From: a virus
Lineage: Duplodnaviria; Caudoviricetes
Length of the DNA: 64,000 nucleotides
Direction: 5' to 3' (one strand)
IMG/VR virus record: IMGVR_UViG_3300030098_006079
Shown one piece after another: positions 3,495-63,550 of this stretch. The translations under genes and the position numbers were made by a program. The notes beneath the pieces are model-generated. The model saw only the letters and a program-made list of their open reading frames with translations, did not search any database and had not been told where the DNA came from. How positions within the stretch are numbered: the stretch's first letter is position 1; each line of letters begins with the position of its first letter.

Positions 3495-3500
3495 ACTTTT

Positions 3501-3528
3501 ATTATAGTGGTTTCACTATAAAGATCAA
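3501..3528 (-). promoter_or_regulatory. Sigma70-like promoter of the deazaguanine operon with overlapping inverted repeat
   Basis: Minus strand TTGATC-N16-TATAAT; palindrome TATAGTG-GTTT-CACTATA at 3503-3520. Confidence 0.65.
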
Positions 3529-3531
3529 GTA

Positions 3532-3538
3532 ATAAATA
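3532..3538 (+). promoter_or_regulatory. T4-type late promoter core
   Basis: ATAAATA just upstream of the ATG at 3544. Confidence 0.55.
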
Positions 3539-3543
3539 ATTAT

Positions 3544-27060: not shown

Positions 27061-27713
27061 ATAAGACTATTATTATATGTTGTCCTGGACAGTCATTTAC
27101 AGGTAAGTTTTTAACATCTCTTACATATTTGATTAGACATTTACATAGTAAAGGGTTTAAAGTTTTATTTAGTACAACATTTTCTCGTAACATATATGAA
27201 GTACGTAACAAATGTCTTATGGGTGACCCTAGTAATGGTCCTGATCAACAGTTATTTAACGGTCAAGATTATGATTACATATTATGGCTAGATGATGATA
27301 TTATTTTTACTCCAGAAGATTTTGAAAAGTTATATAAAGAGGATAAAGATGTTATATCAGGTTTGTATTTAATGGCTAATGGAACTCAGTTCGCTGCTGT
27401 TGAAGTGTGGGACGAAGAATTTTTCAAAGAAAACGGGACGTTTGAATTTCTTAATAAACAAGATATATCTCATAGGTTATTACCGTTTAGTGTTGAGTAT
27501 GTTGGTTTTGGATTTTTATTATTTAAAAAAGGAATCTTTGAGCAATTACAATATCCATGGTTTGAGCCTACATTTTTAGAGATAAAAGATTGTATTGATT
27601 TTTCTATGGAGGACGTAACTCTTTGTATAAAATTGCGCAAATTAAATATCGACGTTTATGTACATCCAGATGTTGTTGTAGGTCATCAAAAGGAAGTTGA
27701 GTTAAAAATATGA
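27057..27713 (+). CDS. GT-A (GT2-like) glycosyltransferase
   Basis: YILWLDDDIIF (DxD), VGFGFLL, MEDVTLC, VVGHQK. Confidence 0.75.
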   Translation: MNKTIIICCPGQSFTGKFLTSLTYLIRHLHSKGFKVLFSTTFSRNIYEVRNKCLMGDPSNGPDQQLFNGQDYDYILWLDDDIIFTPEDFEKLYKEDKDVISGLYLMANGTQFAAVEVWDEEFFKENGTFEFLNKQDISHRLLPFSVEYVGFGFLLFKKGIFEQLQYPWFEPTFLEIKDCIDFSMEDVTLCIKLRKLNIDVYVHPDVVVGHQKEVELKI

Positions 27714-43421: not shown

Positions 43422-46400
43422 ATGGCGAAAATTGTTATAACTAACGGTACTATTCACTCAGATGATGATTTTAACTTAACATCTGGATCGGATGCGAATA
43501 CACGTAATAACTTCCGGATATGTAAGCAAAAAGATTCACATACCCGATTACGTTCATTATCATCCTTTAGAATAAAAACGCACGATTTACTCAATACTGG
43601 TAATGCAGAGATTTGTGGAAATCTTACTGTACATGGTACCTGTACTGTTCTTAATACTACCTTATGTTTAACAGATACAACTGCGACTGATAACTTTACT
43701 CTTGTATCTACTGATGCGGGTGCGTCTGCTGCTCCTGATTTTAAACTGTATAGAAACTCAGCCAGCCCAGCTAATAACGATTCTTTAGGCCATATTAAAT
43801 TTAGTGGTAAGGATGCTGCCGGCAATGAAACTGAGTATGCAAGTATAAAGGGTTGTATCCAATCTGTTGGTTCTGGTAGTGAGTGTGGCGCAATGTTAGG
43901 TAATGTTGTTATTAATGGGTCATCAACTGATATAATCAGAGTTGATTATGCAGGTTTGTGGACTCAAAACAACAAAAATTTGTATCTTAATGGAAGTGGT
44001 CAACTTCGAAATTACGGGGCTTGTTTAAGACTATCTACAGGAGGAGGAGACTATAAAATAACATTCGAGCCAGACTCTACTGTTAAAATGTGTTTACATG
44101 GAGGAGAGTTAACAGTTTGTAATAAAGTTTATACACCAATATTAAGAGCTACTGCTTGTACATTTTATGGTGCTTGTGGTTCTAGTAAATTATCCTCTGA
44201 TGGAGATAATATGCGCCATACTACACAGTATGGTTGTATTAATTTTGGTCCAGGTAATGCTAGTTATGCTCATATAACAACTGATAGAAGTCAATTTTAT
44301 TTTAATAAACAGCTTGTAGTCGATTCTGGCGTTGTAATGTCTTACAATGAAGATCTTAAACTTTCACGTGCTGGTAATAGTGTAAATGCTATTTATATAT
44401 GTAGCGCTCTAACAACTAGTTGTAATCCAACTAAACTATTTTCACAACAAGGACATACCATACCGCAGACTGGTAATGCTGTGTGTTGGTTGAAATTTGG
44501 ATCTTTATGTATACCGCAACACGGTTATAAGATGCGCATGAAAGTTGTTGCGAGTAATGGTTACGGTTCTAGTACAACTGACACTACTCAAGAAACAACA
44601 CTTTTATTTCAAACTGCAAACACCGGTGAAGCTAGTTCCGGTTCAAGTGTGTGTGCGTGTGTACATTCATTTATAGAAGGTAGTACGAAACGTGAATCAG
44701 ATGCTCCTTACTGTTTTATTGTACACGAAGTTAATTCCGCATTATTTGAAATATTTGGTAAATTTAACACTTATACAGGAACCGGTAGTTATTATACAAT
44801 AGAATCTGGACCTACTACATGTTGGATTGCATGTAACTCTTTTGTAGATCCTGATTCTTGTTCAGGTTCTTGTATAGTATCTATACCTAATAGAGGTACT
44901 ATATTTTGTACATCTTCCTCTACTACATGTATATGTGGTTCTGCTATTGTTCAGGGCGATATATGCATGAATAACAATTCGCGTGGTTATAAATTAGGTA
45001 CTGATACCGGTGGTTCTGGTAGTAGAGCTTTTCTAGCATTAGATTCTGACGGTTCTGATGGTATTGGAGCTGGTTCTGATTATTTCTTCGTTGCTAATGA
45101 TGGTTCTGATACCAGATTTTATAATGAAGGCCCGGAACATATAAGACTATGTGGTAGTTCGTGTGTTGCTTTTTGTAAACCGATAGCAGTTCACTGTTGC
45201 GCAAGAATAGCTACTATTAGAAACTTTACCAATACTACATACATGTGTCTTTGTGGTGGTTGTTGTTTGATAGGTGGTATACAGTTTAAAGACTGTCAAG
45301 GTTGTGACCGTGGCTGGGTGTATCATGATGGTGCTGCTAATTTTGGTTTATTATCATGTGCTGGATCTTGGGCTATTAAAATAACAGGTACTAGTAATAT
45401 ACAAAGCTCTTACACTCATTGTTTTTCCGGAAATATTGGTCTTGCTGGTGGATCTGCTAGTCGGGTGTGTATAGCTGGTAAGCGCGCTATAGAAGGTAAT
45501 AGTTGTATATTATCTTTAGGAGAAGATTGGGATTGTATATGTTTACGAGCTACTTGTACATATTCTACAGGAAACATATGTACTACTGCATGTTTACAAT
45601 CATCTGTGGTTTGTTCTACAGGTTGTGTAAAAACTCCGTTGATACAAGCGCAAGGCGGTGGAAGTTGTTTTGGTGCGCCTGCAGGTTGCGATGACTGGGA
45701 ATGTAGTCCTATTAGCATTAGAGAAAGAGGAGCAGTTTCTTCTAATCAAAGTCATGATTGTTATGCTCCTAACTTAAACTTTCATTGGGCTGGTAGAGTT
45801 TCAAACTCTTTGTATATGGCGGCGAACGGTCACTTAAAGTTTGGTTCTTATAATAGCAGCGGTTGTCCTGATGGTCCGAACGGTGTTTTCTGGGCTGGTA
45901 CTCTGTGTGGTAATACTTGTGTAAAATCTCCTATTGTTTGTGGTACAACATGTTTAGCTACTAATGTTATTTCTAGTAGTGGTAGTGCACCATCTGATTA
46001 CGGTGCATTGGCGATTGAAGGAGCCAAAGGAGGTTATGGTGGTGTTCATTTCTGTGGGTATACATTTATGGCAGCATCAGATTGCGGTGGCGGTGGTATT
46101 TATAACGATACTCACAATCAATGGGCTATATGGAATGGTGCAAATGCTGCTACTTACATTTATCATGCTGGTAATGCGAAATTACATACTATCACCAATG
46201 GTGTACGAGTATGCAAAGAATCAAACGCCGGGTATATAGACATTTGCCCATCAGGTGGTTGGGGTCATCTTATAACTAGTAACAATTGTTTCTACATGAA
46301 CGTACCATTGATGGTCAATGGAGGTAGTATTGGTTCTTATGACGAAGATTTAACGCTACAAAGAGGTTATTCCCTTACTGCTGCTGAAAGTATAAAGATT

Positions 46401-47147
46401 ACATCAGGTACTACTCATATATGTCAGCTTACAAAAGTTCATGGTTGTATATGCGCTACCTCTAACATTCAAACTGCAGGTAAGATTCATATTTGTTCTG
46501 CTCATAATTGTCTTCATATGGCGTCTATCTGTGATGCCACGAACTATAACTTTACCATATGCTCAATGTATAATTGGGCTTGCTCTCTCCGTATTACAAA
46601 CAGGGGCGTACCCATATTAAAGGTATGCTCTGGAAATTGTATTACTTCACTATGGGGTAATAATACCGAAAGGATTTGCCTTCATCCTACGGGTACAAAA
46701 ATAGTTGGAGATTTATGCGTTACAGGTCAGGTTTGTGCAGATGGTATGGAGGGAGATACTCTCACAAGCCAGACTGTATGTACAGGTACTATTTGTTTTA
46801 ATACTAGTTGTGTAACAGGGTTGGATGCGGTATATGATGTGTATGTTTCAGCTAACCCAAATTGTGGTGGTTCAACACTATATAGAGATATAGTACATAT
46901 GTCAGTATATGTTACCACAGGTTGGAGTGGTTCAGCAGTGACTAAGTACATTAACCACGTAAATAATTTTGTTAGAGGAGCTGTACATGGTTCTGGCGCC
47001 GGTTCGGTAACTGCCGTTCCTAAATTATTAGTCGGAACAACAGGTTGTGAGTGTTATGCTGCTGCTTGTGCGACTTGTTTGCAAATTCAAGTAGCGGGTG
47101 GGTCAAATAAATATGACACGTGTGTGAAAATTAAAAGAGTTTTATAA
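43422..47147 (+). CDS. Cysteine-rich tail fibre protein
   Basis: Shares the APDFKLYRNSASPA module with 28116; fibre-type beta segments; very high Cys. Confidence 0.8.
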   Translation: MAKIVITNGTIHSDDDFNLTSGSDANTRNNFRICKQKDSHTRLRSLSSFRIKTHDLLNTGNAEICGNLTVHGTCTVLNTTLCLTDTTATDNFTLVSTDAGASAAPDFKLYRNSASPANNDSLGHIKFSGKDAAGNETEYASIKGCIQSVGSGSECGAMLGNVVINGSSTDIIRVDYAGLWTQNNKNLYLNGSGQLRNYGACLRLSTGGGDYKITFEPDSTVKMCLHGGELTVCNKVYTPILRATACTFYGACGSSKLSSDGDNMRHTTQYGCINFGPGNASYAHITTDRSQFYFNKQLVVDSGVVMSYNEDLKLSRAGNSVNAIYICSALTTSCNPTKLFSQQGHTIPQTGNAVCWLKFGSLCIPQHGYKMRMKVVASNGYGSSTTDTTQETTLLFQTANTGEASSGSSVCACVHSFIEGSTKRESDAPYCFIVHEVNSALFEIFGKFNTYTGTGSYYTIESGPTTCWIACNSFVDPDSCSGSCIVSIPNRGTIFCTSSSTTCICGSAIVQGDICMNNNSRGYKLGTDTGGSGSRAFLALDSDGSDGIGAGSDYFFVANDGSDTRFYNEGPEHIRLCGSSCVAFCKPIAVHCCARIATIRNFTNTTYMCLCGGCCLIGGIQFKDCQGCDRGWVYHDGAANFGLLSCAGSWAIKITGTSNIQSSYTHCFSGNIGLAGGSASRVCIAGKRAIEGNSCILSLGEDWDCICLRATCTYSTGNICTTACLQSSVVCSTGCVKTPLIQAQGGGSCFGAPAGCDDWECSPISIRERGAVSSNQSHDCYAPNLNFHWAGRVSNSLYMAANGHLKFGSYNSSGCPDGPNGVFWAGTLCGNTCVKSPIVCGTTCLATNVISSSGSAPSDYGALAIEGAKGGYGGVHFCGYTFMAASDCGGGGIYNDTHNQWAIWNGANAATYIYHAGNAKLHTITNGVRVCKESNAGYIDICPSGGWGHLITSNNCFYMNVPLMVNGGSIGSYDEDLTLQRGYSLTAAESIKITSGTTHICQLTKVHGCICATSNIQTAGKIHICSAHNCLHMASICDATNYNFTICSMYNWACSLRITNRGVPILKVCSGNCITSLWGNNTERICLHPTGTKIVGDLCVTGQVCADGMEGDTLTSQTVCTGTICFNTSCVTGLDAVYDVYVSANPNCGGSTLYRDIVHMSVYVTTGWSGSAVTKYINHVNNFVRGAVHGSGAGSVTAVPKLLVGTTGCECYAAACATCLQIQVAGGSNKYDTCVKIKRVL

Positions 47148-47153
47148 AATACT

Positions 47154-50100
47154 ATGGGATTATTAAGTCAACAATACGGAAAACTAGTCGAGCTTACTGC
47201 AGGAAGTACTTTATGTACCCCTACTATTCGCGCGAATGCGGATAACGGTAGTGGGTGTGTACGGTTTGGTAATATATGTGTGGGTTCCGAAAACCTGTAC
47301 AACACAATACAGAGTTGCACTAACCTCCACTTTCGCGCAGCGGGTAACTGTCCTATTATTGTAGGAGACTCTGGCTCTACTCATACTAAAATCTGTAATG
47401 CAGTATGTTCTCCTATACTTTGTGGTACAACATGTCTATCTACCGCGCAAGTCATTGGTACAAAAGTTTCTGTTGGTTCTCTTAATACGAATTATGATCT
47501 TTACAATAATGGTACGAGTTATTTAAATGGTCATGTCACAATAGATGATAGTTTAGCCATTACAGGCGCGAAGATAATGAAAACTGGTGGTTATAATAAA
47601 CCAGGTATTCAAATGTGCGGTACAGGAAATTATAGTTTTTGCGACCTAAACGTTTTTCTTAAAAATACAGGTGCTGCTAACTCTGCTATATTCTCTGATT
47701 ATGAACCACATGGAGAGTGGGGATTATTTCATGATAATAATGATGACGCATTTTATATTACTGCAGGGTCATCATGTCATAATGTAGGCAGTTTTAATAT
47801 GAAAAACTGCGCTGGTACAGTTAGAACAGCGTACATTAAACAAAAATTTGTTCAAGGTAATGGTAATGCGGAGATCGGAGGGAGTCTTTCTGTAAGCCCT
47901 GATTGTTCAAATAATTATAATGGTATGGCGATTGGTTGTACTTATACTAATATTGGTGGTTGGCACACTCAGCTTAGTATGTATGGAGGCTCTCATGCAG
48001 TTGCAAGATGGAATCATGGCGCTGGTACAGATGGGGCTAATAACTCTCGGCATAACTGTATATATGCACACGTAGACAATCCATTTGTAATCTGTAGTTC
48101 TGGTAATATTAGGTTAAAACCCGGTACTGGTACGACAGTTTCGTGTGGTATGTTTTGCGCCGGTTGTGTATGTGGTGTTACTTGCGTATATTCAAATTGT
48201 GTATACGCCAACAAACTTCAGGCTGATACATGTGTTGTAACTGGTGATTTGTGTTTAACCGAAGACTATAGTGGAGACATGTCTAACGGAATACAGTTAG
48301 GTCGTAGTATTGGTATACCGCAGGCAGCATGGGGAGAGTCTGGTGTGAAAACCGGTAGAATTGAGATTGGGTTACCAACTAAAGATGGTGAAGGAGGTAG
48401 TAGTCATTTAGGTATGATTCATATGACTGTTGATGTATATGAATACGACGGTAATGATGTCTCGACTTTTATTATCGGTGGTCACAACTGGAGTTGTCGT
48501 TGGTACAATTGCGGTGCTCATATCACGGGAGGCTGCACAAACAAAACTATAAAATTAGCCTATCATGCTTGTGGTGGTACTTGTAACGGAAGGTATGTTG
48601 TTCTAATTGGAGAGTGTGATAGCTCTTGGAACTATGGTTCGGTACATGTGAGAAGAATTAATAACGGACTGTATTACAATGGTAATATGGATATGGGTAC
48701 TCCTATGTATGTTAAGAGAGTTACTTGCTCTGATAGTTATTATAATTGTACTACTAGTGATTTAAGATCAGATTCAAAAAGTATGGCAGCATACCAATAC
48801 GCTACGACCTGTGTTCACACTCCTAGGGTTTGTGCTACTACTTGTGTAAGGTCGTCTTATTTATACTCTACAGGTAATATATGTGGTACTGAAATTTGCT
48901 CTGGTTCGTGGTTTAGAAATGCTAATTCAGGTCAAGGGTTGTATAATTCAGCTACAGGGTTTCATTTTTATTCCACAGCAGCAAATATTGTTCGGATTTA
49001 TGGTGCTAGCGCTGATAATATCGGTCTACAAGGATATAGTTGTGGTGCTGCTCGTGGTTGTTTAAATTGGAATTGTTATAATCAACTCAATGTGTACGAC
49101 TCTGGTGGTAATGTTAGATTTTTAATAAACTCTAATACTGATATTAGACTGTGTAATACAACCTGTTTACATTGTAATATATATGTTGGTGGCCGAATAT
49201 TTGCTTGTACCCAGAGCGAAAGTCTCAACTTTAAAGGAGCTCGTGGTTGTTTTACTAATGAGTATATGCACCTATACAATAAAGTAGGTATAGGTCATCC
49301 ATCTGGCTGGGGGTGTGGTGAAACAAATACTCCTGATAAAGGACTTTCTACATATGGTAAAGCATGTATAGGTTATGGTGTATCTGCTTCGACTGATACA
49401 TTGAAGGTTGCAGGAGGAGTTTCAACTCTCGGTGCAAAAGCTTTATATAGTGAGAGTTATGCAAATTCTTTTTATCCTGATGCGGTTGGTACATGGAACC
49501 TTAAATCTGCATCTGGTCAGACTCACAGTAGCTTAAGATTTAGACGAGGGGATGGGAATATTGATGGTTATGTATATTCAAGTACAGGTGGGTATATAGG
49601 TTTTCTTGATTCAGCATCTTATTGGGCGTATGGTCATCAAACTAACGCGTGTCATTGGTGGAATATAAGCAATACTACGCATATGAAACTGTGTGGTAAT
49701 TGTCTTTGTCATTGTCATACTATATGTGCTCAACATTGTTTACGCGCTGATAAAGTAGAAGGCGTTTCGTGCGTGCAAAGTTGTAGATATCAACATCATT
49801 GGCGCACTATAGCTATAGGAGGAGATTATGATAAGTTCTATCCTATTGGATTTACTGTGAAAGGTGGTAATAACTCTGAAGATATATTAGAAATAGCTCA
49901 ACCTAGTGTTCACGCTCCGACCACTAGTTGCGGTGCTATGTATCTTAAATTAGGTGTTAATATTACAGGTTGGGGTCATATTAGTAATCATTATATAGTA
50001 CACAAGTATGCAACTGGTGGTACTAATTCATTAGTATCCAAGGTTAGAGCAATCGACCATTCAACATGTAGAGTTGGTGTATGGTTACGAGGTGGTCTCA

Positions 50101-51941
50101 CTTATTACTATAGATCTAGAGAAGGTACTATTGCTTGTAATATTACTGGTGGTACTACTGCGAGTTGTTTATCCTACGATAATGCAAATAACGCTTATGA
50201 TGTATCCGTACAGTATACTAGCTCTGTAGAGGATAACAATTTTGGTAATACAGGTGGTTGTAATGCTGGAAATGCTTATTTAACTCACCATAGTAGTCTA
50301 GGTACAAGTGTAGTTCTAACTACCGATAACTTACAACAGGCTTTGTGTTGTGGGTGTTGTACAAACACAGTTTGTTTAGGAAATTGTGGTGTTATAAAAA
50401 ATACAAACTTTACTACAGGGGTTGTTTGTGGTAATGATTGTGTAAGAGGTGGTAAGTTATGCTCTTCTGCATGGATATGCGCCAACACAGAAATATATCT
50501 CACTAATTGGGTAAGATTTAATACAGCGAATAAAGGTCTTTATTGGGCTGGTGCATGTCAGACACATCTTTACCCGGCGCAATCTAATTCAACTTTGTAT
50601 TTGAGATCGTGTCACTCTAATACTAGTTTAGCAATAACTACAAGCAACAATACTACTATACGTGGTTATCTTTATGGTGACTCGAGTAATAACTTTGGTT
50701 TCTTAGACTCTGATGGACAATGGGCTATAAGACACCTAGGTAATAATTGCACTGAATTTAGAATAGACAATGGAATAAAAGCAACTATATTCTCTTCATG
50801 TTTTTGTAGTAATAATGTTATATGCGCTGCTACATGTGTACATAGCGCAAAAATTTGCGGTACTCATTACGGAGATGGATCTAACTTAACTGGTGTTGGT
50901 GGTGGTTACTGTACTTGTTGTAATACCACAATAAAAACTGGCGGTACAGATTGTGGTAATATATATTTAGGTAAAGATGTGTTCGCTTGTGGTGTTGCTC
51001 AGGGTAAAACAACAGGGCATTTTAGGAACGTTGCTATAGGTGATTTTGCAATGGGTGCTCTTGGGTGTGACCCACATAGTAACGTAGTTATTGGATATAG
51101 CGCCGGCTCAACTGCTGGAACAACTTGTTGTCGAGGCTGTAACGGCTATTGTTATAATGTATACATAGGTCGTAATGCTGGGGACGGTACTTTTAATGGA
51201 TCAATCGGTGGTACCTCTAATACCGGTTCATGTAATGTGTTTGTTGGAGCATATACTGGCGGTGGTCCGCATAATGGGAAAAATAATGTTCTTATTGGAA
51301 CTAACTCTGGTTACAATATGCAGTGCGGCGCGTCTTGTAATTTGTTTTTAGGTCATGGATCTGGCGGTCATGTAACTACTGGTTGTAAGTGTGTTGTAAT
51401 TGGTTATGGTAGTGGTCAGTGTTACGACAACGCATCAATTTGCGCTGCGTGTACTCATGTAGCAACGTTAAATAAAAGCTCTGGTTCTTTTATTATTCCG
51501 CATCCTGATCCAGCAAAAACAGCGACAACTGACTTACGACATAGTTATGTCGAATCTCCTACGAGAGGTGATAATATTTATAGATGGCAAGTGGATGTTA
51601 CTAATTGTTGTAACGTTATTACGTTGCCAAGCTATTATCAATTTTTAAATGAAAATGATATGGTATGGGTATCACCTGTAGAGCATTTCGGTTCAGCATA
51701 TGGCAAAGTCACAGAAGATCAATGTTGTGCAATTATATGTACAAATGCTGACGGTAAATATAATGTTTTATTAGTAGGTACAAGATGTGACTGTATGGCT
51801 TTAAATCATTGGAAGGGTGTTGAACCACCAATGGAGAGTACATCTCCAGCACTTAGCGCTATTACTGAAGAAAATCCTAATGGGCCAGATTTTCCTCGTA
51901 GATTTGTATGTAATGTCAGAAAGCCAATGTCTGAATGGTAA
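47154..51941 (+). CDS. Cysteine-rich tail fibre protein with chaperone-like C-terminal domain
   Basis: Fibre modules, NVxIGxxAG repeats near the end, then FIIPHPDP...LRHSYVESP...VWVSP domain. Confidence 0.8.
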   Translation: MGLLSQQYGKLVELTAGSTLCTPTIRANADNGSGCVRFGNICVGSENLYNTIQSCTNLHFRAAGNCPIIVGDSGSTHTKICNAVCSPILCGTTCLSTAQVIGTKVSVGSLNTNYDLYNNGTSYLNGHVTIDDSLAITGAKIMKTGGYNKPGIQMCGTGNYSFCDLNVFLKNTGAANSAIFSDYEPHGEWGLFHDNNDDAFYITAGSSCHNVGSFNMKNCAGTVRTAYIKQKFVQGNGNAEIGGSLSVSPDCSNNYNGMAIGCTYTNIGGWHTQLSMYGGSHAVARWNHGAGTDGANNSRHNCIYAHVDNPFVICSSGNIRLKPGTGTTVSCGMFCAGCVCGVTCVYSNCVYANKLQADTCVVTGDLCLTEDYSGDMSNGIQLGRSIGIPQAAWGESGVKTGRIEIGLPTKDGEGGSSHLGMIHMTVDVYEYDGNDVSTFIIGGHNWSCRWYNCGAHITGGCTNKTIKLAYHACGGTCNGRYVVLIGECDSSWNYGSVHVRRINNGLYYNGNMDMGTPMYVKRVTCSDSYYNCTTSDLRSDSKSMAAYQYATTCVHTPRVCATTCVRSSYLYSTGNICGTEICSGSWFRNANSGQGLYNSATGFHFYSTAANIVRIYGASADNIGLQGYSCGAARGCLNWNCYNQLNVYDSGGNVRFLINSNTDIRLCNTTCLHCNIYVGGRIFACTQSESLNFKGARGCFTNEYMHLYNKVGIGHPSGWGCGETNTPDKGLSTYGKACIGYGVSASTDTLKVAGGVSTLGAKALYSESYANSFYPDAVGTWNLKSASGQTHSSLRFRRGDGNIDGYVYSSTGGYIGFLDSASYWAYGHQTNACHWWNISNTTHMKLCGNCLCHCHTICAQHCLRADKVEGVSCVQSCRYQHHWRTIAIGGDYDKFYPIGFTVKGGNNSEDILEIAQPSVHAPTTSCGAMYLKLGVNITGWGHISNHYIVHKYATGGTNSLVSKVRAIDHSTCRVGVWLRGGLTYYYRSREGTIACNITGGTTASCLSYDNANNAYDVSVQYTSSVEDNNFGNTGGCNAGNAYLTHHSSLGTSVVLTTDNLQQALCCGCCTNTVCLGNCGVIKNTNFTTGVVCGNDCVRGGKLCSSAWICANTEIYLTNWVRFNTANKGLYWAGACQTHLYPAQSNSTLYLRSCHSNTSLAITTSNNTTIRGYLYGDSSNNFGFLDSDGQWAIRHLGNNCTEFRIDNGIKATIFSSCFCSNNVICAATCVHSAKICGTHYGDGSNLTGVGGGYCTCCNTTIKTGGTDCGNIYLGKDVFACGVAQGKTTGHFRNVAIGDFAMGALGCDPHSNVVIGYSAGSTAGTTCCRGCNGYCYNVYIGRNAGDGTFNGSIGGTSNTGSCNVFVGAYTGGGPHNGKNNVLIGTNSGYNMQCGASCNLFLGHGSGGHVTTGCKCVVIGYGSGQCYDNASICAACTHVATLNKSSGSFIIPHPDPAKTATTDLRHSYVESPTRGDNIYRWQVDVTNCCNVITLPSYYQFLNENDMVWVSPVEHFGSAYGKVTEDQCCAIICTNADGKYNVLLVGTRCDCMALNHWKGVEPPMESTSPALSAITEENPNGPDFPRRFVCNVRKPMSEW

Positions 51942-51944
51942 TAC

Positions 51945-51972
51945 TTGAATTTTATCTATAACTAGATAAATT
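51945..51972 (+). promoter_or_regulatory. Sigma70-like promoter for the GT9/sulfotransferase pair
   Basis: TTGAAT-N16-TAAATT. Confidence 0.45.
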
Positions 51973-51977
51973 TTTAC

Positions 51978-53045
51978 GTGGACAAACATATTATCTTTCA
52001 CGTAGAAGGCGGTATCGGTAAGAACATTATGGCTACGGCCGTAGCTGAAGCTATATCAAAAGCACATCCTGATAGAAAATTAATCGTAGTAGCTGCATGG
52101 GCAGCAGTATGGGTAAATAATCCTCATATTGAACGTTTTTATATGCTGGGCGCTACTCCATACTTTTTTGAAGATTTTATTAAAGGTAAAGATACTTGGA
52201 TCTTTAAGTCTGAACCATACCACCATCATGACTTTTTAAACGGTAAGAGATACCTTGCAGATATTTGGTGTGAGCAACTAGGCGTACCATACAACGGAGA
52301 ATTACCCACAATAGTTCTATCTAAAAATGAGAAAGATAATATGGATAGAAAGCTCCGTGGTTTTGGTAAGCCTATATTTGCTCTACAAACTAACGGAGGT
52401 GGTCCACAAGACTACCCAGTATCATGGGTAAGAGATGTACCTCTATCTAATCTTAAAGAAGTACTAAACGAAGTTAATAAAGAATATAAGATTATTCATA
52501 TTAGGAGGAAAGATCAGTTAGAGATTAAAGGTATTGATTATATCGAAACTCCAAATGTAAGAGACCTATTTGCTCTTGTAGAATATTCTCATAACAGATT
52601 ATTAATTGATAGCTTTGCTCAACACGCAGCAGTTGCATTAGATAGACCATCTACTGTATTATGGCCTATTGATAACGTTAAGACATTAGGTTATCCTGAT
52701 TTTCATAACAATATTGTATCTAATGCTGATACTCGTAAAGTACATTTAATTGATAGTTACTTAGGTGCTCATCCGATCAATGGAGAGTTCTTACATGAGT
52801 GTCCATTTGATAATGACAATATATTTGAATCCCAACCAATCTTCGACAGTCTCGAAGAATTAGAAGAGAAAGAATTTTACGAAGCTCCTGCAGGGGTGAG
52901 AGTAAGTAACAAGCAAGAGAAGAACTTATTTGATACCGCTAAGCCGTTACCTCCAGAGCCTATGTTAGCTCAAATGAACAATCCATTCCCTCCTGCACCA
53001 GGTAAACGTACTAATAGACAAAAACCTAAGAAACGTAGAAAGTAA
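51978..53045 (+). CDS. GT-B glycosyltransferase, GT9 (heptosyltransferase)-like
   Basis: EGGIGKNIMATAV...HPDRKLIVV and LLIDSFAQHAAVALDRPSTVLW parallel GT9 motifs; GTG start. Confidence 0.75.
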   Translation: MDKHIIFHVEGGIGKNIMATAVAEAISKAHPDRKLIVVAAWAAVWVNNPHIERFYMLGATPYFFEDFIKGKDTWIFKSEPYHHHDFLNGKRYLADIWCEQLGVPYNGELPTIVLSKNEKDNMDRKLRGFGKPIFALQTNGGGPQDYPVSWVRDVPLSNLKEVLNEVNKEYKIIHIRRKDQLEIKGIDYIETPNVRDLFALVEYSHNRLLIDSFAQHAAVALDRPSTVLWPIDNVKTLGYPDFHNNIVSNADTRKVHLIDSYLGAHPINGEFLHECPFDNDNIFESQPIFDSLEELEEKEFYEAPAGVRVSNKQEKNLFDTAKPLPPEPMLAQMNNPFPPAPGKRTNRQKPKKRRK

Positions 53046-53863
53046 TGTCAACAATCTTTTTTCAGTCCTCTATGCCGAGGGCAGGTAGTACATTATTACA
53101 AAATGTACTTGCTCAAAATCCTGACATATATGCTACACCTACCTCAGGTGTATTAGAGTTAACATTCGCGGCTCGTCATATGTTTAACGAATCTAATGAG
53201 TTTAAAGCTCAAGACTCTAAAACTATGGAGGAAGGTCTTATTGGTTTCCTCAATGAAGGTATACATGGTTGGTATGATAATATTACTGACAAACCATATG
53301 TAGTGGATAAGAGTAGAGGTTGGGGTATACATTATGACTTCTTAGATGCTTTCTTAGAATATGAACCTAAGATTATCTGTATGGTAAGAGATCTTAGACA
53401 GATTATTGCCTCTATGGAAAAGAAATTTAGAGAGAATCCTCTCGACCATGACCCTATAGTTAATTGGTCAGAAATGTCGGGCACAACTGTTGAGAAAAGA
53501 GCGGACGTATGGTTACAAACACAGCCTGTAGGCTTAGCATTAGAGCGTTTTGGTGAGATAATTAAACGCGGGTGGGATAAACATATGTTGTTTGTAAAGT
53601 TTGAGGACTTCACAAAGTATCCAGATGAAGAAATGGATAGGATATATGACTATCTAGAACTTGATTCTTATACTGGACACGACTTCAATAAGGTAGAACA
53701 GACTACAAAAGAAGATGACACCATATACGGAATATACGGTGATCATAAAATTAATCCTGTAGTAAGCGAGTTACCACAGGATTATATCGACGTACTTGGT
53801 GTTAAAACTTGCGACCATATAAAAGATGTCGGTCAGTTTTATTTCAAGTATTTTAATTATTAA
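53045..53863 (+). CDS. PAPS-dependent sulfotransferase
   Basis: 5'-PSB loop SMPRAGSTLL, 3'-PB motif MVRDLRQIIAS, VKFEDF. Confidence 0.85.
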   Translation: MSTIFFQSSMPRAGSTLLQNVLAQNPDIYATPTSGVLELTFAARHMFNESNEFKAQDSKTMEEGLIGFLNEGIHGWYDNITDKPYVVDKSRGWGIHYDFLDAFLEYEPKIICMVRDLRQIIASMEKKFRENPLDHDPIVNWSEMSGTTVEKRADVWLQTQPVGLALERFGEIIKRGWDKHMLFVKFEDFTKYPDEEMDRIYDYLELDSYTGHDFNKVEQTTKEDDTIYGIYGDHKINPVVSELPQDYIDVLGVKTCDHIKDVGQFYFKYFNY

Positions 53864-54144
53864 GCAGCGCTGTTAGACTGATAATAAGTCCTACCCTCTG
53901 TAATAGCGGTATTGAACTTACTCTTCTGAGCTGTTGTAGCAGTTCCAGTAAACCAATCTTTATCCATCATAAGTTCGATGTGTCGATAGTTTCTGTCTGC
54001 ATCATCAGCTTTCTCAGCTGTAGTTTGTCCTGCTACTGCTTCTGTATTATCTACGATATTATCAATAACTGTAACAGAATCTAACGCGGCTGTTACTGCT
54101 GCCTGCGCTTCCGTCGAATTTGCTGTTGGATCACCTTCTGGCAT
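53860..54144 (-). CDS. Small fibre-associated hypothetical protein
   Basis: 94 aa, A/T/D-rich, RNYRHIELM; TAAATA upstream on the minus strand. Confidence 0.65.
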   Translation of the reverse strand: MPEGDPTANSTEAQAAVTAALDSVTVIDNIVDNTEAVAGQTTAEKADDADRNYRHIELMMDKDWFTGTATTAQKSKFNTAITEGRTYYQSNSAA

Positions 54145-54182
54145 GTAAGTATTTAATCAAAGTTGACTAAATTCCACATAGG

Positions 54183-54190
54183 TATAAATA
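54183..54190 (+). promoter_or_regulatory. T4 late promoter
   Basis: Exact TATAAATA before 54200. Confidence 0.7.
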
Positions 54191-54199
54191 ATTTTCGTT

Positions 54200-54445
54200 A
54201 TGGATCCGATACAAGCATTAGATATGTTAAATCAGGTTGTAAAAGGTATCAAGCTACCTTACAATGAACACGTCTTACTTGAAAGATCTGTAGATGTTCT
54301 TAAAGACGCACTACAAAGTGGTGGTGGTCAAGAACCTGCAGAGCTTCTAGACACAGATGAACCTGTTGTACTAGAAGATGAAGCCCCTAAAGCAACGAAG
54401 GCGAAGGCTAAAACCCCTCGTCGTGGCGGAAGGAGGAAGAAGTAG
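54200..54445 (+). CDS. Small hypothetical protein (paralogue of 54447)
   Basis: QALDML...LPYNEHVLLE; basic tail. Confidence 0.65.
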   Translation: MDPIQALDMLNQVVKGIKLPYNEHVLLERSVDVLKDALQSGGGQEPAELLDTDEPVVLEDEAPKATKAKAKTPRRGGRRKK

Positions 54446-54446
54446 T

Positions 54447-54680
54447 ATGGCGAACATTAGTCAAGGTACCAAAGCACCCGCTGAAGCCCAAGCACAACCT
54501 CAGCAAGAAGGTGGGCAAGAGATTAATCTAGATGAGCTCAGTACTGAGCAAGCATTTGGGTTTATTACAAGCGCTGTAAGATCACAGCCGTTCACATATA
54601 TGGAGCATGTTCAATTAGAGCAAGCTAGAGCGGCAGTAGGAACAGCAATTGGACTCACTCAACCCGCTGGACAAGTTTAA
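54447..54680 (+). CDS. Small hypothetical protein (paralogue of 54200)
   Basis: QAFGFI...FTYMEHVQLE; start re-called at MANIS. Confidence 0.65.
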   Translation: MANISQGTKAPAEAQAQPQQEGGQEINLDELSTEQAFGFITSAVRSQPFTYMEHVQLEQARAAVGTAIGLTQPAGQV

Positions 54681-54702
54681 CATAGATTAAACATAATAAA
54701 TC

Positions 54703-54727
54703 AAAGGCTCCGAAAGGAGTCTTTTTT
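54703..54727. terminator. Rho-independent terminator between convergent genes
   Basis: AAAGGCTCC-GAAA-GGAGTCTTT plus T-tract. Confidence 0.88.
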
Positions 54728-55716
54728 TATGCTTCTTGATAAATTTCACTCGCTTCAAACTCAGTCATAAATGTTTTGATATCGAGTCTAGACTTATCCA
54801 TATTTTTAAGATATAGATGAGTCTCTTTTATTAGCTCAATATCATTTATTTTTTTATTAGCAGTCTCTAGCGAGTTATAATAGAAGGGATAATCTTCCCC
54901 TAGGTATTGTACTACAGCTGGGTGACAATTAACTAGAAGTGGAATGTTTCTTGATATACAATCAGTAACACCATTATTAGCGCTTGTGTCTATTAGATAT
55001 AAGAAACCAATTGTGTCAGTCATAAACTTATCAAACTCTTTATTCTCTAAATGCTTATGTACTATAACATTACCTTTAATTTGTTCACCAGTATACTCTT
55101 GCTTACGCTTAAACTCTTTCATTTGCTCATCATATATTTGATGTGCATAAGGTAATCTGCCTAACAAAACATTCTTAGGCATTTGAGTATCTAACAGCCA
55201 ATACTTTTCAAAGTCTCTCAACCAGTAACCTAAACAAGTAACTTGAGGTTTCGCTAAGAACGCATTCAAATTAAATTCATCTACATCTAATGGTGTTGGG
55301 TGTAGTAAATTTTCTACTAAAATATGATCAAATCCGTATTGTGTAAAAATGTATCTTATATGATCTTCTAAATCATCTGATAAGGTGAATATACCTTTAC
55401 AGTTTCGCATAGCTAATACAAACGGTAACCGGGCACACATATTAATAGGTGTTTGTTTGATGTCAAACGGTTTTGGTATAATCATTGGATTGTGAATAAA
55501 ACCAATCCAATCTTTTTTATGGTGAGGGAGTACTTGAGGCTTGTCGTTGTTAAAGCAATAGTCCCAATCAAACGTTCTTTCTATAAATTCATCTATTAGT
55601 ATATCTGCGTTATCATTATGGTATCGTTTTACCATACACGCATTGACCCAATTCCAGCCCGCTCGATGTATTTCTTCTTTAAATGTTTTTTTCCTTAGAA
55701 AGTTAAATTGCTTCAC
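54727..55716 (-). CDS. GT-B-like glycosyltransferase-related protein
   Basis: WIGFIHNP, KGIFTLS, LLHPT, DTSANNGVTDCISRNIPLLVN.HPAVVQYLGEDYPFYY. Confidence 0.55.
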   Translation of the reverse strand: MKQFNFLRKKTFKEEIHRAGWNWVNACMVKRYHNDNADILIDEFIERTFDWDYCFNNDKPQVLPHHKKDWIGFIHNPMIIPKPFDIKQTPINMCARLPFVLAMRNCKGIFTLSDDLEDHIRYIFTQYGFDHILVENLLHPTPLDVDEFNLNAFLAKPQVTCLGYWLRDFEKYWLLDTQMPKNVLLGRLPYAHQIYDEQMKEFKRKQEYTGEQIKGNVIVHKHLENKEFDKFMTDTIGFLYLIDTSANNGVTDCISRNIPLLVNCHPAVVQYLGEDYPFYYNSLETANKKINDIELIKETHLYLKNMDKSRLDIKTFMTEFEASEIYQEA

Positions 55717-56105
55717 AATAACTCTTTATCGCGTCTTACACAATAATATGTATCTTTTTTTGTTTTATTAACAAGTGAACAATTATAATATAAACGCTCG
55801 ATTTTCTTCCACACTGCAGTACTATTTTCGTTGAGTAGATGAGAAGATCTAAATTCAGTAGCGCCAAGATCTAAACATTTTGATATTGTAGCAGTATAAA
55901 ATTGGAAGCCAAGATTTAATCCATGCAGCGCTGCATGTACATCAGAGTTAGTAACTGTAAATATTCTCCGACCATCTATTTTTTCAATATCTCCTTTTAG
56001 CTCTCCTTGTTCTTTTCCGCCTATTATTTCTATCAATTTTGATTCAAATGTCTGGTCATGTAGTTCGACATAAACTTCAAACTTAATTGTGGCTTGAATT
56101 ATCAT
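55713..56105 (-). CDS. GNAT-like protein
   Basis: VTNSDVHAALHGLNLGFQFY...NENSTAVWKK resembles GNAT motifs A and B. Confidence 0.45.
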   Translation of the reverse strand: MIIQATIKFEVYVELHDQTFESKLIEIIGGKEQGELKGDIEKIDGRRIFTVTNSDVHAALHGLNLGFQFYTATISKCLDLGATEFRSSHLLNENSTAVWKKIERLYYNCSLVNKTKKDTYYCVRRDKELL

Positions 56106-57561: not shown

Positions 57562-57987
57562 ATGGAAGTAGAAACGTTAAATAAAACATGGTTCGTAGAT
57601 GTAGATGGAACAATCCTACATCATCACACAAATGATAGCTTGGATAAACTTATCGAGGAGTATGGAGAAGATAGTTTTAAATATGAACAGCCTATTGTTA
57701 GTGCTGTAGAGTTTTTTCAAGATCTACCGGAAACAGATATCATTGTTATTGCAACTGCTCGCGAAAAGAGACACACCGATCATACATTAAATGTATTAGA
57801 ATATATTGGTATGCCTTTTGATCAATGGATATTCGAGTTAGGTGCTGGTCCTAGAGTTGTGGTAAACGACATCAAACCACCGGGCGCGGCTGGCAATAAA
57901 AGAGCTCTCAAGACAGCTTACGGAATTAATCTAGATCGAGATGGAGGAATTACATCAAAGCATCGTGCGATTGCAGCAAAAATTTAA
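57562..57987 (+). CDS. HAD-superfamily phosphatase-like protein
   Basis: [10 protein letters not shown] (DxDGT), IATAR, VVVND; in-frame ATGs at 57553 and 57562. Confidence 0.75.
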
Positions 57988-57988
57988 A

Positions 57989-59170
57989 ATGGTAACAAAA
58001 ATAGGAACCCCGTTTACGAAGACTTCTACTTTAGTAATGCTATGTGGAAGTGGAGAGTTAGGTAAAGAAGTTGTAATTGAATTGCAGCGTTTAGGTGCTG
58101 AAGTAGTTGCAGTAGACTCATATGAGAACGCTCCAGCGCATCAAGTAGCAGATCATTCGGCTGTTATTGATATGCTCGACGAAAAACAATTGAGGGATGT
58201 CATCGTTAAATACAATCCTAATATTATTGTTCCAGAGATTGAAGCTATTGCTACAAATGTCCTGAAAGAAGCAGAAGAATGTGATCGTACAGTCATACCA
58301 AATGCTAGAGCAGTTCAACTTACTATGAACCGAGAAGGTATTCGGTCTCTTGTAGCTGAAGAGCTAGGTTTAAAGACTTCTAATTATAAATTCGCTTCTA
58401 CTAAAGAAGAGTTCACCGCAGCTGTTGAAGAAATCTCTTTACCTTGTGTAGTTAAGCCTATTATGTCTTCTAGCGGTAAAGGACAGAGTGTAATTAGATC
58501 GTTTGACGATGTACATACTGCCTGGGAATACGCTCAAACTGGAGGTCGAGCTGGAGCTGGTCGAGTTATTGTAGAAGAGTTTATTGAATTTGATTATGAA
58601 ATTACTTTACTCACAGTAAAGCATAACGACGGTATCTCTTTTTGTGAACCTATCGGGCATGAGCAAGTAGATGGAGATTATATTAAATCCTGGCAACCTC
58701 ATCCAATGTCTGGTACCGCGAGACAAAAAGCTGAAGATATTGCTAGAAGCGTAGTAAGCAATCTTGGTGGGTATGGTGTGTTTGGAGTAGAGTTATTTGT
58801 AAAGGGTGATGAAGTTTATTTTTCTGAAGTATCTCCACGCCCACATGATACTGGTTTAGTGACTATGATCTCTCAAGATCTATCAGAATTTGCTCTACAT
58901 GCAAGAGCTATATTAGGTTTACCAATCCCTAATATTCTACAGCTAGGTTTTGGAGCATCTCATGTTATTAAGCTAGAAGGTAAGAGTGATAATGTAACAT
59001 TCTCTGGCTTCGACGGTTTAAAAGAAACAGGTACTCAAGTGAGACTGTTTGGAAAACCTGGAGTAAATGGTTCGCGTCGTATGGGTGTTGCTTTAGCAAT
59101 TGATAATGGTTTAGGATATGCAAAAGAAAAAGCCGAACGAGTCGCACTCAGCGTTAAGTCCGAATTGTAA
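57989..59170 (+). CDS. purT: Formate-dependent GAR transformylase (ATP-grasp)
   Basis: [51 protein letters not shown]; start re-called at MVTKIG. Confidence 0.95.
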
Positions 59171-60993: not shown

Positions 60994-61365
60994 ATGAAAG
61001 TAAGACATAAGAGATATGGAGCTGTAACAAATAAAAATTGGGGTAATGTTATTAAGATTGTTGATAATGAAGAAAATAATTACAGCGGTAGAATTATAAA
61101 TTTGAATCAAAATCAAATGACCTCTACTCATTTTCATTCTAAGAAACATAAAACAATATATGTCTTGCAAGGTACTCTTACAATTGAAATTATTGAACCT
61201 ACAAACGGAGAAACTATTTCATTTGATGTAGACTCGGAAGAGTGTTTTGATATTGAACAAAATGTTGCGCATCGTTTAATGGCTAAAGATGGTGGAGTTA
61301 CCGCCATTGAAATTAGTACTTTTCATCATGATGAAGATGTATACAGAGTATCTCCTGCACTGTAA
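60994..61365 (+). CDS. Cupin-fold protein
   Basis: TSTHFHSKKHKTIYVLQG and IEQNVAHRL. Confidence 0.8.
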   Translation: MKVRHKRYGAVTNKNWGNVIKIVDNEENNYSGRIINLNQNQMTSTHFHSKKHKTIYVLQGTLTIEIIEPTNGETISFDVDSEECFDIEQNVAHRLMAKDGGVTAIEISTFHHDEDVYRVSPAL

Positions 61366-62167: not shown

Positions 62168-62183
62168 CTTGGTGTTGTCAGAG

Positions 62184-63107
62184 ATGAAACTAAACATAAA
62201 CAAAACTAAGTTCGAAAAGATATCGAATATCGATGTCCCTGATATCTTTTACAATCGTCTAAAGTCTGGAATCGACGTAGTAGATAATGCTTTTGGTGAT
62301 GGGTTTCTCCCTTCTAGCACTGTTGTTATGAGCGGGGAACCTGGCACCGGTAAGACTACATTCCTGTTACAAGTACTCGAGGAGCTCGCCATTCGGAAAT
62401 ACAATGTAGGTTATGTTTCTGGAGAAGAATGCATAGAGCTGCTTAAGGTCAATTGTGACCGGATTGGTGTCAAGAATGTTCTGGCTTGTAATGAGACTAA
62501 CCTCAACTCCATCCTCAAACATATCCCGAGCTTCGATGCATTAGTCATAGATAGCTTCCAGTCACTGAATACAAACAAGCGCGGCTTGGCTCATGAGAAA
62601 GAATGTGTCGAGAAGATTTGCGCTGCAGCTAAGAAGCATCAGACTACTGTATTCATTATCTCTCATATTACTAAGACTGGTAAGATGAAGGGTAGTACGT
62701 TGTTGCCTCACTCTGTGGATGTGGTGTGTCATTTGACTCGTCATGATGACTTCGACGAGATGGAAGATAAGTCAGTGGTGCTAAATATTACTAAGAATAG
62801 ATTCGGCCCTACATTAGTTCGAGAGCTAAACTTCACTGCGCGCGGTTATGATTGGACTACAGTCAAGGAAGTAAAAGCAGAGAATACAGCAGCACCGAAG
62901 AGTCAGCGTATCAAGTCTGAGACAACTACGATCAAGCAACTTGCAGAAAAGATTAAGGATGGTAAGTTTAGCATTGACGAAGTGACCAAGAAGATCAAAA
63001 ACAAACCTCGCGCATATTATGTGTTGAAAAAACTTCGGGATGATGGTATAATTGTTGAAGCTAATAAAGCTGGTAAGAGTAAGACTCACTACACATTCAA
63101 GAAGTAA
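62184..63107 (+). CDS. RadA/Sms-like RecA-fold ATPase with C-terminal winged-helix-like domain
   Basis: GEPGTGKTT, YVSGEE, LVIDSFQ, KNRFGP; no N-terminal C4 Zn finger or Lon-like domain. Confidence 0.8.
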   Translation: MKLNINKTKFEKISNIDVPDIFYNRLKSGIDVVDNAFGDGFLPSSTVVMSGEPGTGKTTFLLQVLEELAIRKYNVGYVSGEECIELLKVNCDRIGVKNVLACNETNLNSILKHIPSFDALVIDSFQSLNTNKRGLAHEKECVEKICAAAKKHQTTVFIISHITKTGKMKGSTLLPHSVDVVCHLTRHDDFDEMEDKSVVLNITKNRFGPTLVRELNFTARGYDWTTVKEVKAENTAAPKSQRIKSETTTIKQLAEKIKDGKFSIDEVTKKIKNKPRAYYVLKKLRDDGIIVEANKAGKSKTHYTFKK

Positions 63108-63550
63108 TGCAAACGTTTCTACCATATAACAATTTCTATCAGAGTGCAAAAGTACTAGACCAGAAGCGTCTAGGGAAGCAGAGAGTAGAAGTACTTCAAT
63201 TGCTTAACTCTATCAAAGCATCGAAAGAAGATAGACCGTATAGAGGTTGGAAGAATCATCCATGTCGCAATATGTGGTACCTCAAAGGTAAACATGACTA
63301 CGCTAACGCATTAGTCTACTACGGCCAAGCAGTATGTAAAGCTTGGAAAGAGCGCGGGTATAAAGATACTTGCTATGAGAAAATATCTGCTCTTTATGAT
63401 CATTCGAAAAAGTTAGTATTTCCTCCGTGGTTAGGTGTTCATAAACTTCATGAGTCCCATCGTAGTATGTTGACTCAGAAAGATAGTAGCTGGTACAGAA
63501 AGTTATGGCCTTCTACTCCAGATAATCTAGAATATTACTGGCCCGTATGA
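63107..63550 (+). CDS. Pyrimidine-dimer DNA glycosylase (DenV/endonuclease V-like)
   Basis: MQTFLPY...LDQKRLGKQRVE...GWKNHP...HESHRSML. Confidence 0.82.
   Translation: MQTFLPYNNFYQSAKVLDQKRLGKQRVEVLQLLNSIKASKEDRPYRGWKNHPCRNMWYLKGKHDYANALVYYGQAVCKAWKERGYKDTCYEKISALYDHSKKLVFPPWLGVHKLHESHRSMLTQKDSSWYRKLWPSTPDNLEYYWPV

Follow-up and report, generated by a model that had tools for sequence, protein, structure and literature searches.

A fibre-linked cassette of aquatic tailed phages that probably coats fibres with a sulfated sugar

Organization of the locus

The 64,000-nucleotide (nt) stretch of DNA analysed here, the whole of which we call the window, comes from the virus record IMGVR_UViG_3300030098_006079. 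Directly downstream of a block of fibre genes it carries two adjoining genes, one for a protein resembling glycosyltransferases (GTs) of family 9 (GT9) and one for a sulfotransferase of the type that uses 3′-phosphoadenosine 5′-phosphosulfate (PAPS). The best explanation for this gene pair is a late, fibre-coupled modification cassette. The source phage is a marine T4-like myovirus with a GC content of ~35%. Family scans reveal that the window encodes a gp5-type baseplate hub, a class Ia ribonucleotide reductase, and a ClpB-like ATPase, and its NrdA protein is 57–59% identical to the NrdA proteins of pelagimyophages and cyanomyoviruses. Among GenBank phages, no match was found by a DNA search with the stretch or by tblastn searches with the last fibre protein (1595 amino acids, aa) and the baseplate hub.

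The fibre block spans positions 28116–51941 and consists of four co-directional open reading frames (ORFs) of 646, 4398, 1241, and 1595 aa on the plus strand, which are rich in Ser, Thr, Asn, and Gly. The Cys content is 4–7% in the last three proteins. The first ORF (28116–30056) encodes a Cys-poor, fibre-like protein rich in Thr, Ser, Gly, and Ala, a segment of which is 50% identical to a stretch of the relative L004 (L-numbers denote individual related loci). The second (30142–43338) encodes a giant fibre protein with a tail-fibre- or virion-like N-terminal region, in which residues 52–460 have matches among cyanophage and pelagiphage proteins annotated as tail-fibre or virion proteins, with E values down to 2e-11. 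These matches, together with the presence of Peptidase_S74 in an L001 neighbour, indicate that the fibres are virion-type proteins.

Beyond this region, the giant protein consists of very regular repeats that extend over residues ~420–4250. Autocorrelation gives a period of 17 residues, and the repeat logo yields the consensus N-T-A-x-G-x-x-[AS]-L-x-x-N-T-T-G-x-x. A run of ~3,800 residues would hold some 220 repeats if it is unbroken. The protein has 227 NxS/T sites, where about 130 would be expected, and approximately one Cys per repeat, located at position 16 or nearby. The third ORF (43422–47147) encodes a Cys-rich (6.8%) protein that is judged to be fibre-like from its composition and from partial matches to the large upstream ORFs of relatives. 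The fourth (47154–51941) encodes the last fibre protein (6.6% Cys), which ends in a Cys-rich domain of 255 aa (residues 1341–1595, window 51174–51938) that belongs to no Pfam family. This domain could be a receptor-binding tip, a chaperone domain, or an enzyme docking site.

Only 36 nt separate the stop of the last fibre gene (51941) from the GTG start of the GT9-like gene (51978), whose own stop overlaps the ATG of the sulfotransferase gene (53045) by 1 nt. No late-promoter box is present in the 36-nt gap, and the first terminator-like site on the plus strand occurs only at 54703. Given the short gap, the overlap, and the lack of an intervening terminator or late box, transcription of the fibre operon runs on through both genes. 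The 36-nt gap, the coupled pair, the small genes that follow, and a convergent gene pair had all been described in an earlier note on this DNA, made by a model from the letters alone, and each of these ORFs was recovered in its place. The gap also contains a perfect 8-bp AT-rich inverted repeat (51951–51970; TTTATCTA / TAGATAAA) with a 4-nt loop.

The GT9-like protein

The gene at 51978–53045 (plus strand) encodes a protein of 355 aa with a GT-B core of ~300 aa and a disordered, Pro-rich, basic tail. An AlphaFold 2 (AF2) model built on 31 homologues, with a predicted local distance difference test score (pLDDT) of 85.7, was compared with known structures. The matches to GT9 structures reach VIA Z values of 21.9 for 3TOV, 20.4 for WaaF, 19.2 for TibC, and 18–18.4 for WaaC, whereas every other GT-B family scores 11.2 or lower. 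Foldseek gives E values of 2e-11 to 1e-5 against GT9 structures. By this model, the predicted fold of the protein is specifically GT9-like. Structural neighbours in BFVD include uncultured-phage proteins that were automatically named RfaF, GT9, or Aah/TibC, so annotation pipelines have already picked up the fold, though it has not been studied.

Conservation within the family is consistent with a GT9-type donor site. In an alignment of 72 sequences, whose members are 38–54% identical to the window protein, the GT9 donor motif D211-S212-x3-H216 is 100% conserved. It aligns to the sequences DTGLSH of E. coli WaaC and DSGLMH of E. coli WaaF. Residues G11, G12, G14, K15, G140, G141, R152, and D153 are likewise invariant, and the protein carries a G-G...S-W-x-R-D-x-P element that is counted within the GT9 donor-site motif. 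Alignments of the family to single sequences with hhalign are statistically weak (E 0.1 for WaaC, E 0.019 for WaaF) and serve only to establish the motif register. Sequence and profile searches of the PDB with the family returned nothing. The family has one near-invariant cysteine (C98) and no Cys cluster.

Homologues of the protein are numerous, with 612 in metagenomes, all of them unannotated. Their clusters are almost wholly viral by the Atlas classification, and a check of the first 600 pattern matches confirmed at least 288 viral contigs with the gene. The carriers include aquatic phages that range from myoviruses of ~100 kb to jumbo phages of 350 kb, and the pair of GT9-like and sulfotransferase genes is found downstream of fibres in dozens of aquatic lineages. 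The tail of the window protein (residues ~320–355, window 52935–53042) is disordered and Pro-rich and ends in a run of Lys and Arg. Tails ending in this manner are confined to the closest relatives. In the next clade the tail is rich in Pro and Gln, and forms of 290 aa are tail-less.

The sulfotransferase

The coupled gene (53045–53863, plus strand) encodes a PAPS-type sulfotransferase of 272 aa that scores above the Pfam cut-offs for Sulfotransfer_3 (PF13469; E 1.1e-13, 52.4 bits versus a cut-off of 27) and Sulfotransfer_1 (PF00685; E 2.4e-11, 44 bits versus 22). It also matches phrog_27463 (E 4e-43), and it is 58% identical to its L009 orthologue. The 5′-phosphosulfate-binding (PSB) motif P11-R12-x-G14-S15-T16 and the 3′-phosphate-binding residues R115 and S123 are intact. 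Among 45 sulfotransferase sequences, all of these positions are 100% conserved except G14, which is conserved in 93%.

The best NCBIfam match of the protein is NoeE (E 2e-8), a sugar sulfotransferase that sulfates the fucose of Nod factors. At 33 bits against a NoeE cut-off of 500, the phage protein is not a NoeE orthologue. Even so, the carbohydrate sulfotransferases NodH and NoeE share their PAPS-binding motifs with it. The likeness extends to genomic context, because phage relatives place a gene for adenosine 5′-phosphosulfate (APS) kinase beside the sulfotransferase gene, just as nod clusters pair NodPQ, whose APS kinase function (CysC/NodQ) supplies PAPS, with NodH. The N-terminus of the phage protein weakly matches protein tyrosine sulfotransferase (E 0.04), which makes direct sulfation of a protein conceivable. 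The cultured cyanophage S-SKS1 was considered as a test system and set aside, since its sulfotransferase homologue is 29% identical but has no evident fibre context.

Linkage to fibre genes in related loci

A total of 90 related loci, 10 obtained by exact-protein look-up and 80 from IMG/VR, were compared by tblastn and ORF calling, and sequences were grouped into clusters with less than 80% identity between them. An ORF was considered fibre-like if it was at least 500 aa long, contained at least 38% Ser, Thr, Asn, and Gly, was on the same strand, and ended at most 1.7 kb before the GT9-like gene. Among the loci with enough upstream DNA (n = 81), such an ORF is present in 60, representing 35 of 43 clusters, and it usually lies 26–450 nt away. 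For comparison, 152 of 635 other ORFs in these fibre-centred loci have such an ORF upstream. The genomic linkage to fibres that the earlier note had described therefore extends to relatives. In a clade of jumbo phages, the GT9-like gene is located between repeat-fibre genes.

Association with the sulfotransferase is similarly recurrent. Among 88 loci, 53 have its gene directly after the GT9-like gene, and these represent 31 of 44 clusters; the encoded proteins are 47–59% identical to that of the window. On a maximum-likelihood tree of the GT9-like family, this adjacency is spread over several clades and needs at least 4–7 changes, which argues that it is not one inherited accident. The window arrangement is conserved in full, convergent pair included, in its closest relatives L004 and L005 (~84% identity). 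A clade at ~50% identity has the GT9-like gene behind fibres and followed by tail genes, without the sulfotransferase.

Features of the fibres themselves recur in some of the loci. In 14 related loci, a large fibre-like ORF upstream of the GT9-like gene likewise ends in the C-terminal domain of the last fibre protein (36–56% identity by tblastn), and a jackhmmer search of the locus ORFs places the domain in 15 loci, including the window. In every locus but L066, where the distance is 4.2 kb, no other large ORF lies closer to the GT9-like gene on its upstream side, and the gap is 26–800 nt. The 17-aa repeat type occurs in the fibre genes of 13 loci, namely the window and 12 related ones. Neither feature qualifies as a universal partner of the GT9-like enzyme, because each is restricted to a subset of the loci.

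A conserved ORF of 113–121 aa lies between the fibre and GT9-like genes in L009 (9617–9958), L007 (5721–6086), and ~17 other loci. It has no family match and is not present in the window. Its product could be a fibre chaperone.

Genes for donor supply

Several relatives encode enzymes that might produce the donor substrates of the cassette. An APS kinase homologue is found in 37 loci, where it mostly follows the sulfotransferase gene and is accompanied by genes for a nucleotidyltransferase-fold protein and a DUF2061 protein. The order in the freshwater locus L009 (11702–15310) and 34 other loci is APS kinase, the nucleotidyltransferase-fold protein (128 aa), and the DUF2061 protein (70 aa). 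The best matches of the 128-aa protein are to nicotinamide mononucleotide adenylyltransferase (E 3e-10), and we speculate that it replaces ATP sulfurylase and so completes PAPS synthesis.

In L009, L010, L015, and L023, the operon additionally carries genes for APS kinase, a cupin, a HAD phosphatase (with no phosphatase match in L023), and heptose synthesis. The best NCBIfam matches of the heptose genes are heptose-1-phosphate adenylyltransferase (E 2e-25), heptose-7-phosphate kinase (E 8e-40), and ADP-heptose 6-epimerase (E 3e-52), all of which fall below the curated cut-offs. Judging from these matches, the genes together make up a complete five-step route to ADP-L-glycero-D-manno-heptose, present in five loci. 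The fifth is L020, in which the fibre gene is immediately preceded by the heptose genes and APS kinase is encoded elsewhere on the contig.

Among the related loci, the cupin gene occurs only in those with heptose genes, where, as in L009 (12117–12518), it occupies the place expected for the GmhA isomerase and its product weakly matches WbuC cupins, mannose-6-phosphate isomerases, and lyxose/mannose isomerases. A related cupin of 123 aa is encoded in the window (60994–61365, plus strand), 8 kb downstream of the cassette. It is 28% identical to the L009 protein (E 7e-9) and has weak matches to the WbuC cupin and to lyxose/mannose isomerase. These cupins may be sugar-phosphate isomerases that serve as a non-orthologous sedoheptulose-7-phosphate isomerase.

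The records of four relatives were also scanned with TIGR02198 and PF01583. One complete jumbo phage has a PfkB-type kinase (below cut-off) ~20–28 kb from the GT9-like gene, a second record has a strong APS kinase match far from this gene, and the record of L020 has both kinases. The scan of a 67%-complete record from the clade of the window found neither.

A proposed function in fibre modification

The fibre linkage, the sulfotransferase linkage, and the APS kinase and ADP-heptose pathway genes of relatives combine to make fibre heptosylation plus sulfation the best reading of the cassette, one that we favour with modest confidence. In the infected cytoplasm, before assembly, the GT9-like enzyme would move heptose from ADP-heptose to Ser or Thr residues of the fibre, and each 17-aa repeat of the 4398-aa protein would offer one N-T-T-G turn as a site. 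The sulfotransferase would then sulfate the sugar with PAPS as donor, which would create an anionic glycan coat on the fibre. For donors, the window phage would depend on its host or on genes that lie beyond the window. The identity of the sugar donor is suggested by the relatives with heptose genes, which are 44% identical, and both the acceptor and the sequence of the two reactions are likewise putative.

Phages with this cassette probably coat their own fibres with a sulfated sugar. More tentative, and in our view falling slightly short of even chances, is the broader proposal that aquatic tailed phages run a self-contained pathway for sulfated-heptose fibres, made up of a divergent GT9-fold family, a sulfotransferase, and their own donor genes where the host cannot supply the substrates. 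The sulfated and acylated fibre glycan proposed in the earlier note fares unevenly. A GT9-type transferase and a sulfotransferase are indeed tied to fibres (35/43 and 31/44 clusters, respectively) and to donor genes, but acylation finds no support as a component of the system, because the convergent gene pair on which it depended accompanies the cassette only in close relatives; elsewhere the pair lies next to a different fibre/GT operon, or its GT-B gene lies among early genes. The roles suggested there for such a glycan, namely receptor mimicry, protease shielding, or binding, are hypothetical.

The closest parallel among known systems is provided by TibC and Aah, which attach heptose to the repeats of TibA and AIDA-I, the adhesins encoded beside them. 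Like these enzymes (PDB 4RAP, 4RB4), the phage protein has a GT9 GT-B fold (Z 19). Both are soluble cytoplasmic proteins encoded beside a very long, short-period, Ser/Thr-rich surface repeat protein, and the pathway genes of relatives imply ADP-heptose as the donor for the phage family as well. However, the phage model aligns only to residues 95–391 of TibC and lacks the first ~95 residues. The iron-binding cysteines of that N-terminal extension are not found in the phage model, and TibC is dodecameric. Moreover, the phage family has an invariant Lys at the place expected for the catalytic Asp, and its partner is a fibre with 17-aa repeats rather than an autotransporter with 19-aa repeats. The resemblance to these enzymes that the earlier note had drawn is therefore upheld by fold and by location beside a repeat-rich fibre, but not by sequence, as the phage protein belongs to no NCBIfam or Pfam family. 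We know of no bacterial autotransporter heptosyltransferase (BAHT) system with a sulfotransferase, whereas the phage GT9-like gene is coupled to one.

A second comparison is with WaaC and WaaF, with which the phage protein shares Z values of 18–20, the C-terminal D-[ST]-x-x-x-H motif, and a glycine-rich start of the C-terminal domain. The Pfam model PF01075 misses the phage family, however, and the N-terminal G-D of these enzymes appears to be replaced by G-K. The genomic contexts also differ, with fibre genes in the phages and an operon for the lipopolysaccharide (LPS) core in the case of WaaC and WaaF.

Several results weigh against the proposed heptosylation and sulfation of fibres. The 355-aa protein matches no Pfam family and, at E values up to 1, no NCBIfam family. 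The GT9 hidden Markov model PF01075 is matched by only two of 31 homologues (E ~0.06) and is unmatched in four phage records that carry the gene. The invariant K15 appears to fall at the position of the GT9 catalytic Asp (D13 of WaaC and WaaF, D110 of TibC), located in a G-D motif after strand 1. This placement follows from the register of the structural alignments (model residue 3 onwards with WaaC residue 1 onwards, and model residue 1 onwards with TibC residue 95 onwards). With a Lys in place of the Asp, the chemistry may differ or the acceptor might be phosphorylated; inactivity appears less likely because the donor site is invariant. In addition, one GT9-fold protein, a subunit of the chloroplast NADH dehydrogenase-like complex (NDH), is structural. 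The window holds no APS kinase or heptose gene besides the cupin, according to tblastn with the enzymes of a relative and to family scans from which some small ORFs were omitted. The earlier statement that it lacks genes for PAPS and sugar-nucleotide synthesis thus stands, with the cupin at 60994–61365 as a possible exception. The acceptor is deduced from gene order alone, and many of the loci share ancestry, so that conservation of gene order is in part inheritance. A complex prediction for the GT9-like core (residues 1–300) with residues 1341–1595 of the last fibre protein gave 0.00 and points neither way.

An alternative that we consider unlikely is that the substrate is a glycan of the host, or another one outside the virion, for instance that of the LPS core, capsule, or S-layer, and that the enzymes thereby alter the surface of the infected cell. 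The position beside the fibres would then reflect late timing or the mobility of a host-range module, and the effect would be to exclude other phages or to keep progeny from sticking to debris. Characterised GT9 enzymes outside the TibC/Aah group do act on LPS, and WaaC and WaaF rank near the top of the structural matches. Furthermore, a phosphorylated acceptor could fit the G-G-x-G-K loop, and sulfotransferases occur without evident fibre context in cultured cyanophages such as S-SKS1. In opposition to this alternative, the GT9-like gene stays behind or between fibres in 35 of 43 clusters while the fibres and downstream genes differ. Neither enzyme matched a membrane-associated family in general scans, which did not include transmembrane or signal-peptide prediction, and late expression would presumably leave little time for surface remodelling by a lytic T4-like phage.

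It is improbable, in our estimation, that the GT9-like protein is a non-enzymatic fibre assembly factor or virion component built on a GT-B scaffold, with the sulfotransferase as an independent auxiliary gene. Such a role would account for the apparent loss of the canonical catalytic Asp. It also has a precedent in the NDH subunit (7wff, 9grx, 7f9o), which is a GT9-fold match of the model. Chaperone genes typically follow fibre genes, and the nearest relatives without the sulfotransferase have tail genes after the GT9-like gene. Nevertheless, the donor-site residues G140, G141, R152, D153, D211, S212, and H216 are invariant even though the sequences have diverged to 38–54% identity, and a chaperone would need none of the sulfotransferase, APS kinase, and ADP-heptose genes with which this gene repeatedly co-occurs. 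Less probable still is a cassette that modifies DNA, by glycosyl or sulfo hypermodification, or a small molecule, yielding a sulfated metabolite. GT-B enzymes of T-even phages glucosylate DNA, viral GTs hypermodify DNA (as cited in PMC12619734), and the P-loop-like motif could bind phosphate. Yet the fold match is specific to GT9 and does not extend to DNA glucosyltransferases, the genes sit in the late structural module rather than among replication or DNA-modification genes, and their linkage is to fibre genes.

The P-loop-like character mentioned above resides in the invariant G-G-x-G-K sequence after strand 1 (residues 11–16, window 52008–52025), which causes several homologues to match P-loop NTPase families of Pfam weakly.

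To our knowledge, no sulfation or heptose pathway has been described for the glycosylation of mycobacteriophage virions. A literature search turned up no account of this cassette and no mention of fibre-linked genes for GT9-type enzymes or sulfotransferases. The sole precedent found for glycosylation of phage virions concerns the capsid and tail tube of mycobacteriophages, in which GTs encoded beside structural genes decorate the virion proteins of the same phage (Freeman et al. 2023, PMC10527164, as cited in PMC12619734). The targets in these actinobacteriophages are the C-termini of capsid and tail-tube proteins, whereas the present cassette is known from genes alone.

If fibre heptosylation and sulfation are correct, no phage virion glycoprotein would have been known to be sulfated before, and the modification would add a new factor that determines host range or the survival of particles in water. 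Tail fibres determine which cells a phage infects, and a negatively charged, covalent fibre glycan would change the view of receptor binding, protease resistance, and particle stickiness in seawater. Fibre sequence alone would then not predict host range. The cassette also brings whole pathways for its donors (ADP-heptose, APS kinase) into the genomes of phages, where such genes are usually read as host-directed 'auxiliary metabolic genes'. Three or four genes and one repeat fragment would make a simple, testable model of protein heptosylation outside enterobacterial autotransporters.

Other transferases near the fibre block

Two pairs of genes flank the fibre block and cassette. Upstream, two tandem plus-strand genes encode GT-A-like paralogues of 194 aa (26476–27060) and 218 aa (27057–27713) that are 26% identical (E 4e-21). 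The first has no family or PDB match and carries S-N-K at the DxD position, so it is probably inactive. The second has a D-D-D motif, a sub-threshold match to the Pfam family Glycos_transf_2 (E 1.2e-3), and weak PDB matches to the viral GT-A protein A197 and to a glycosyltransferase. Taken together, these sequence features suggest an active/inactive pair. The GT-A pair named in the earlier note is thus present as paralogues, the second with the D-D-D motif, while its assignment to GT-A is weak.

Downstream, two convergent minus-strand genes overlap by 4 nt. The gene at 54727–55716 encodes a GT4-like GT-B glycosyltransferase of 329 aa. Its AF2 model (pLDDT 92.1) matches GT4-type structures at Z 18–21, with SenB, HepE, PimA, and BshA at Z 20–21. 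The protein itself has no Pfam match, and six of 28 homologues match Glyco_trans_1_2 at 1e-4 or weaker. The gene at 55713–56105 encodes a protein of 130 aa resembling GCN5-related N-acetyltransferases (GNATs), an Atlas lead for which the signals are weak but consistent. In a profile search of the PDB, its top four matches (E 0.07–0.9) are the uncharacterised YjdJ, YqjY, and two named N-acetyltransferases, and these matches cover the region of a G-x-G-x-G motif. Three of the four are, we believe, GNAT-fold proteins. The protein has no Pfam match of its own, and four of 24 homologues match PF00583, the best at 5.6e-5. Thus, the GT-B half of the pair put forward in the earlier note is supported by its predicted fold, as GT4-like at Z 21, whereas the GNAT half is only weakly backed.

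The convergent pair is not part of the conserved cassette. It is kept by L004 and L005 and was not found in any of the 80 IMG/VR loci. As a two-gene unit it is conserved in L094 (42% and 56% identity), where it faces the end of a different operon, composed of LamG-fibre and GT1 genes. In another relative, a homologue of the GT4-like protein (36% identity) is encoded among early genes. Given this distribution, membership of the pair in the system is no more than possible, and the same holds for the weak GT-A pair. Position alone suggests that the two pairs might lengthen the glycan or acetylate it.

Neighbouring genes and minor features

Between the cassette and the convergent pair lie three small ORFs. 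The first, on the minus strand (53860–54144, 94 aa), is 64% identical in L004 and L005 and has no family match. The other two, on the plus strand, encode 81 aa (54200–54445) and ~84–100 aa (54378–54680) and are conserved in the same two relatives. The T4-type late box TATAAATA is not enriched in the window and does not occur before the GT9-like gene; one copy is located at 54183–54190, before the ORF at 54200. A terminator-like hairpin with a 9-bp stem, a GAAA loop, and a T-run lies at the convergent junction (54703–54724).

Elsewhere, the window encodes a full-length ClpB-like AAA+ protein (13530–15911), a PurT-like ATP-grasp enzyme (57941–59170), and a KaiC/DnaB-like ATPase (62169–63550) that is followed by a pyrimidine-dimer glycosylase. 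The close relative L005 carries a gene for a phosphate-selective porin (Porin_O_P) at 10792–11991.

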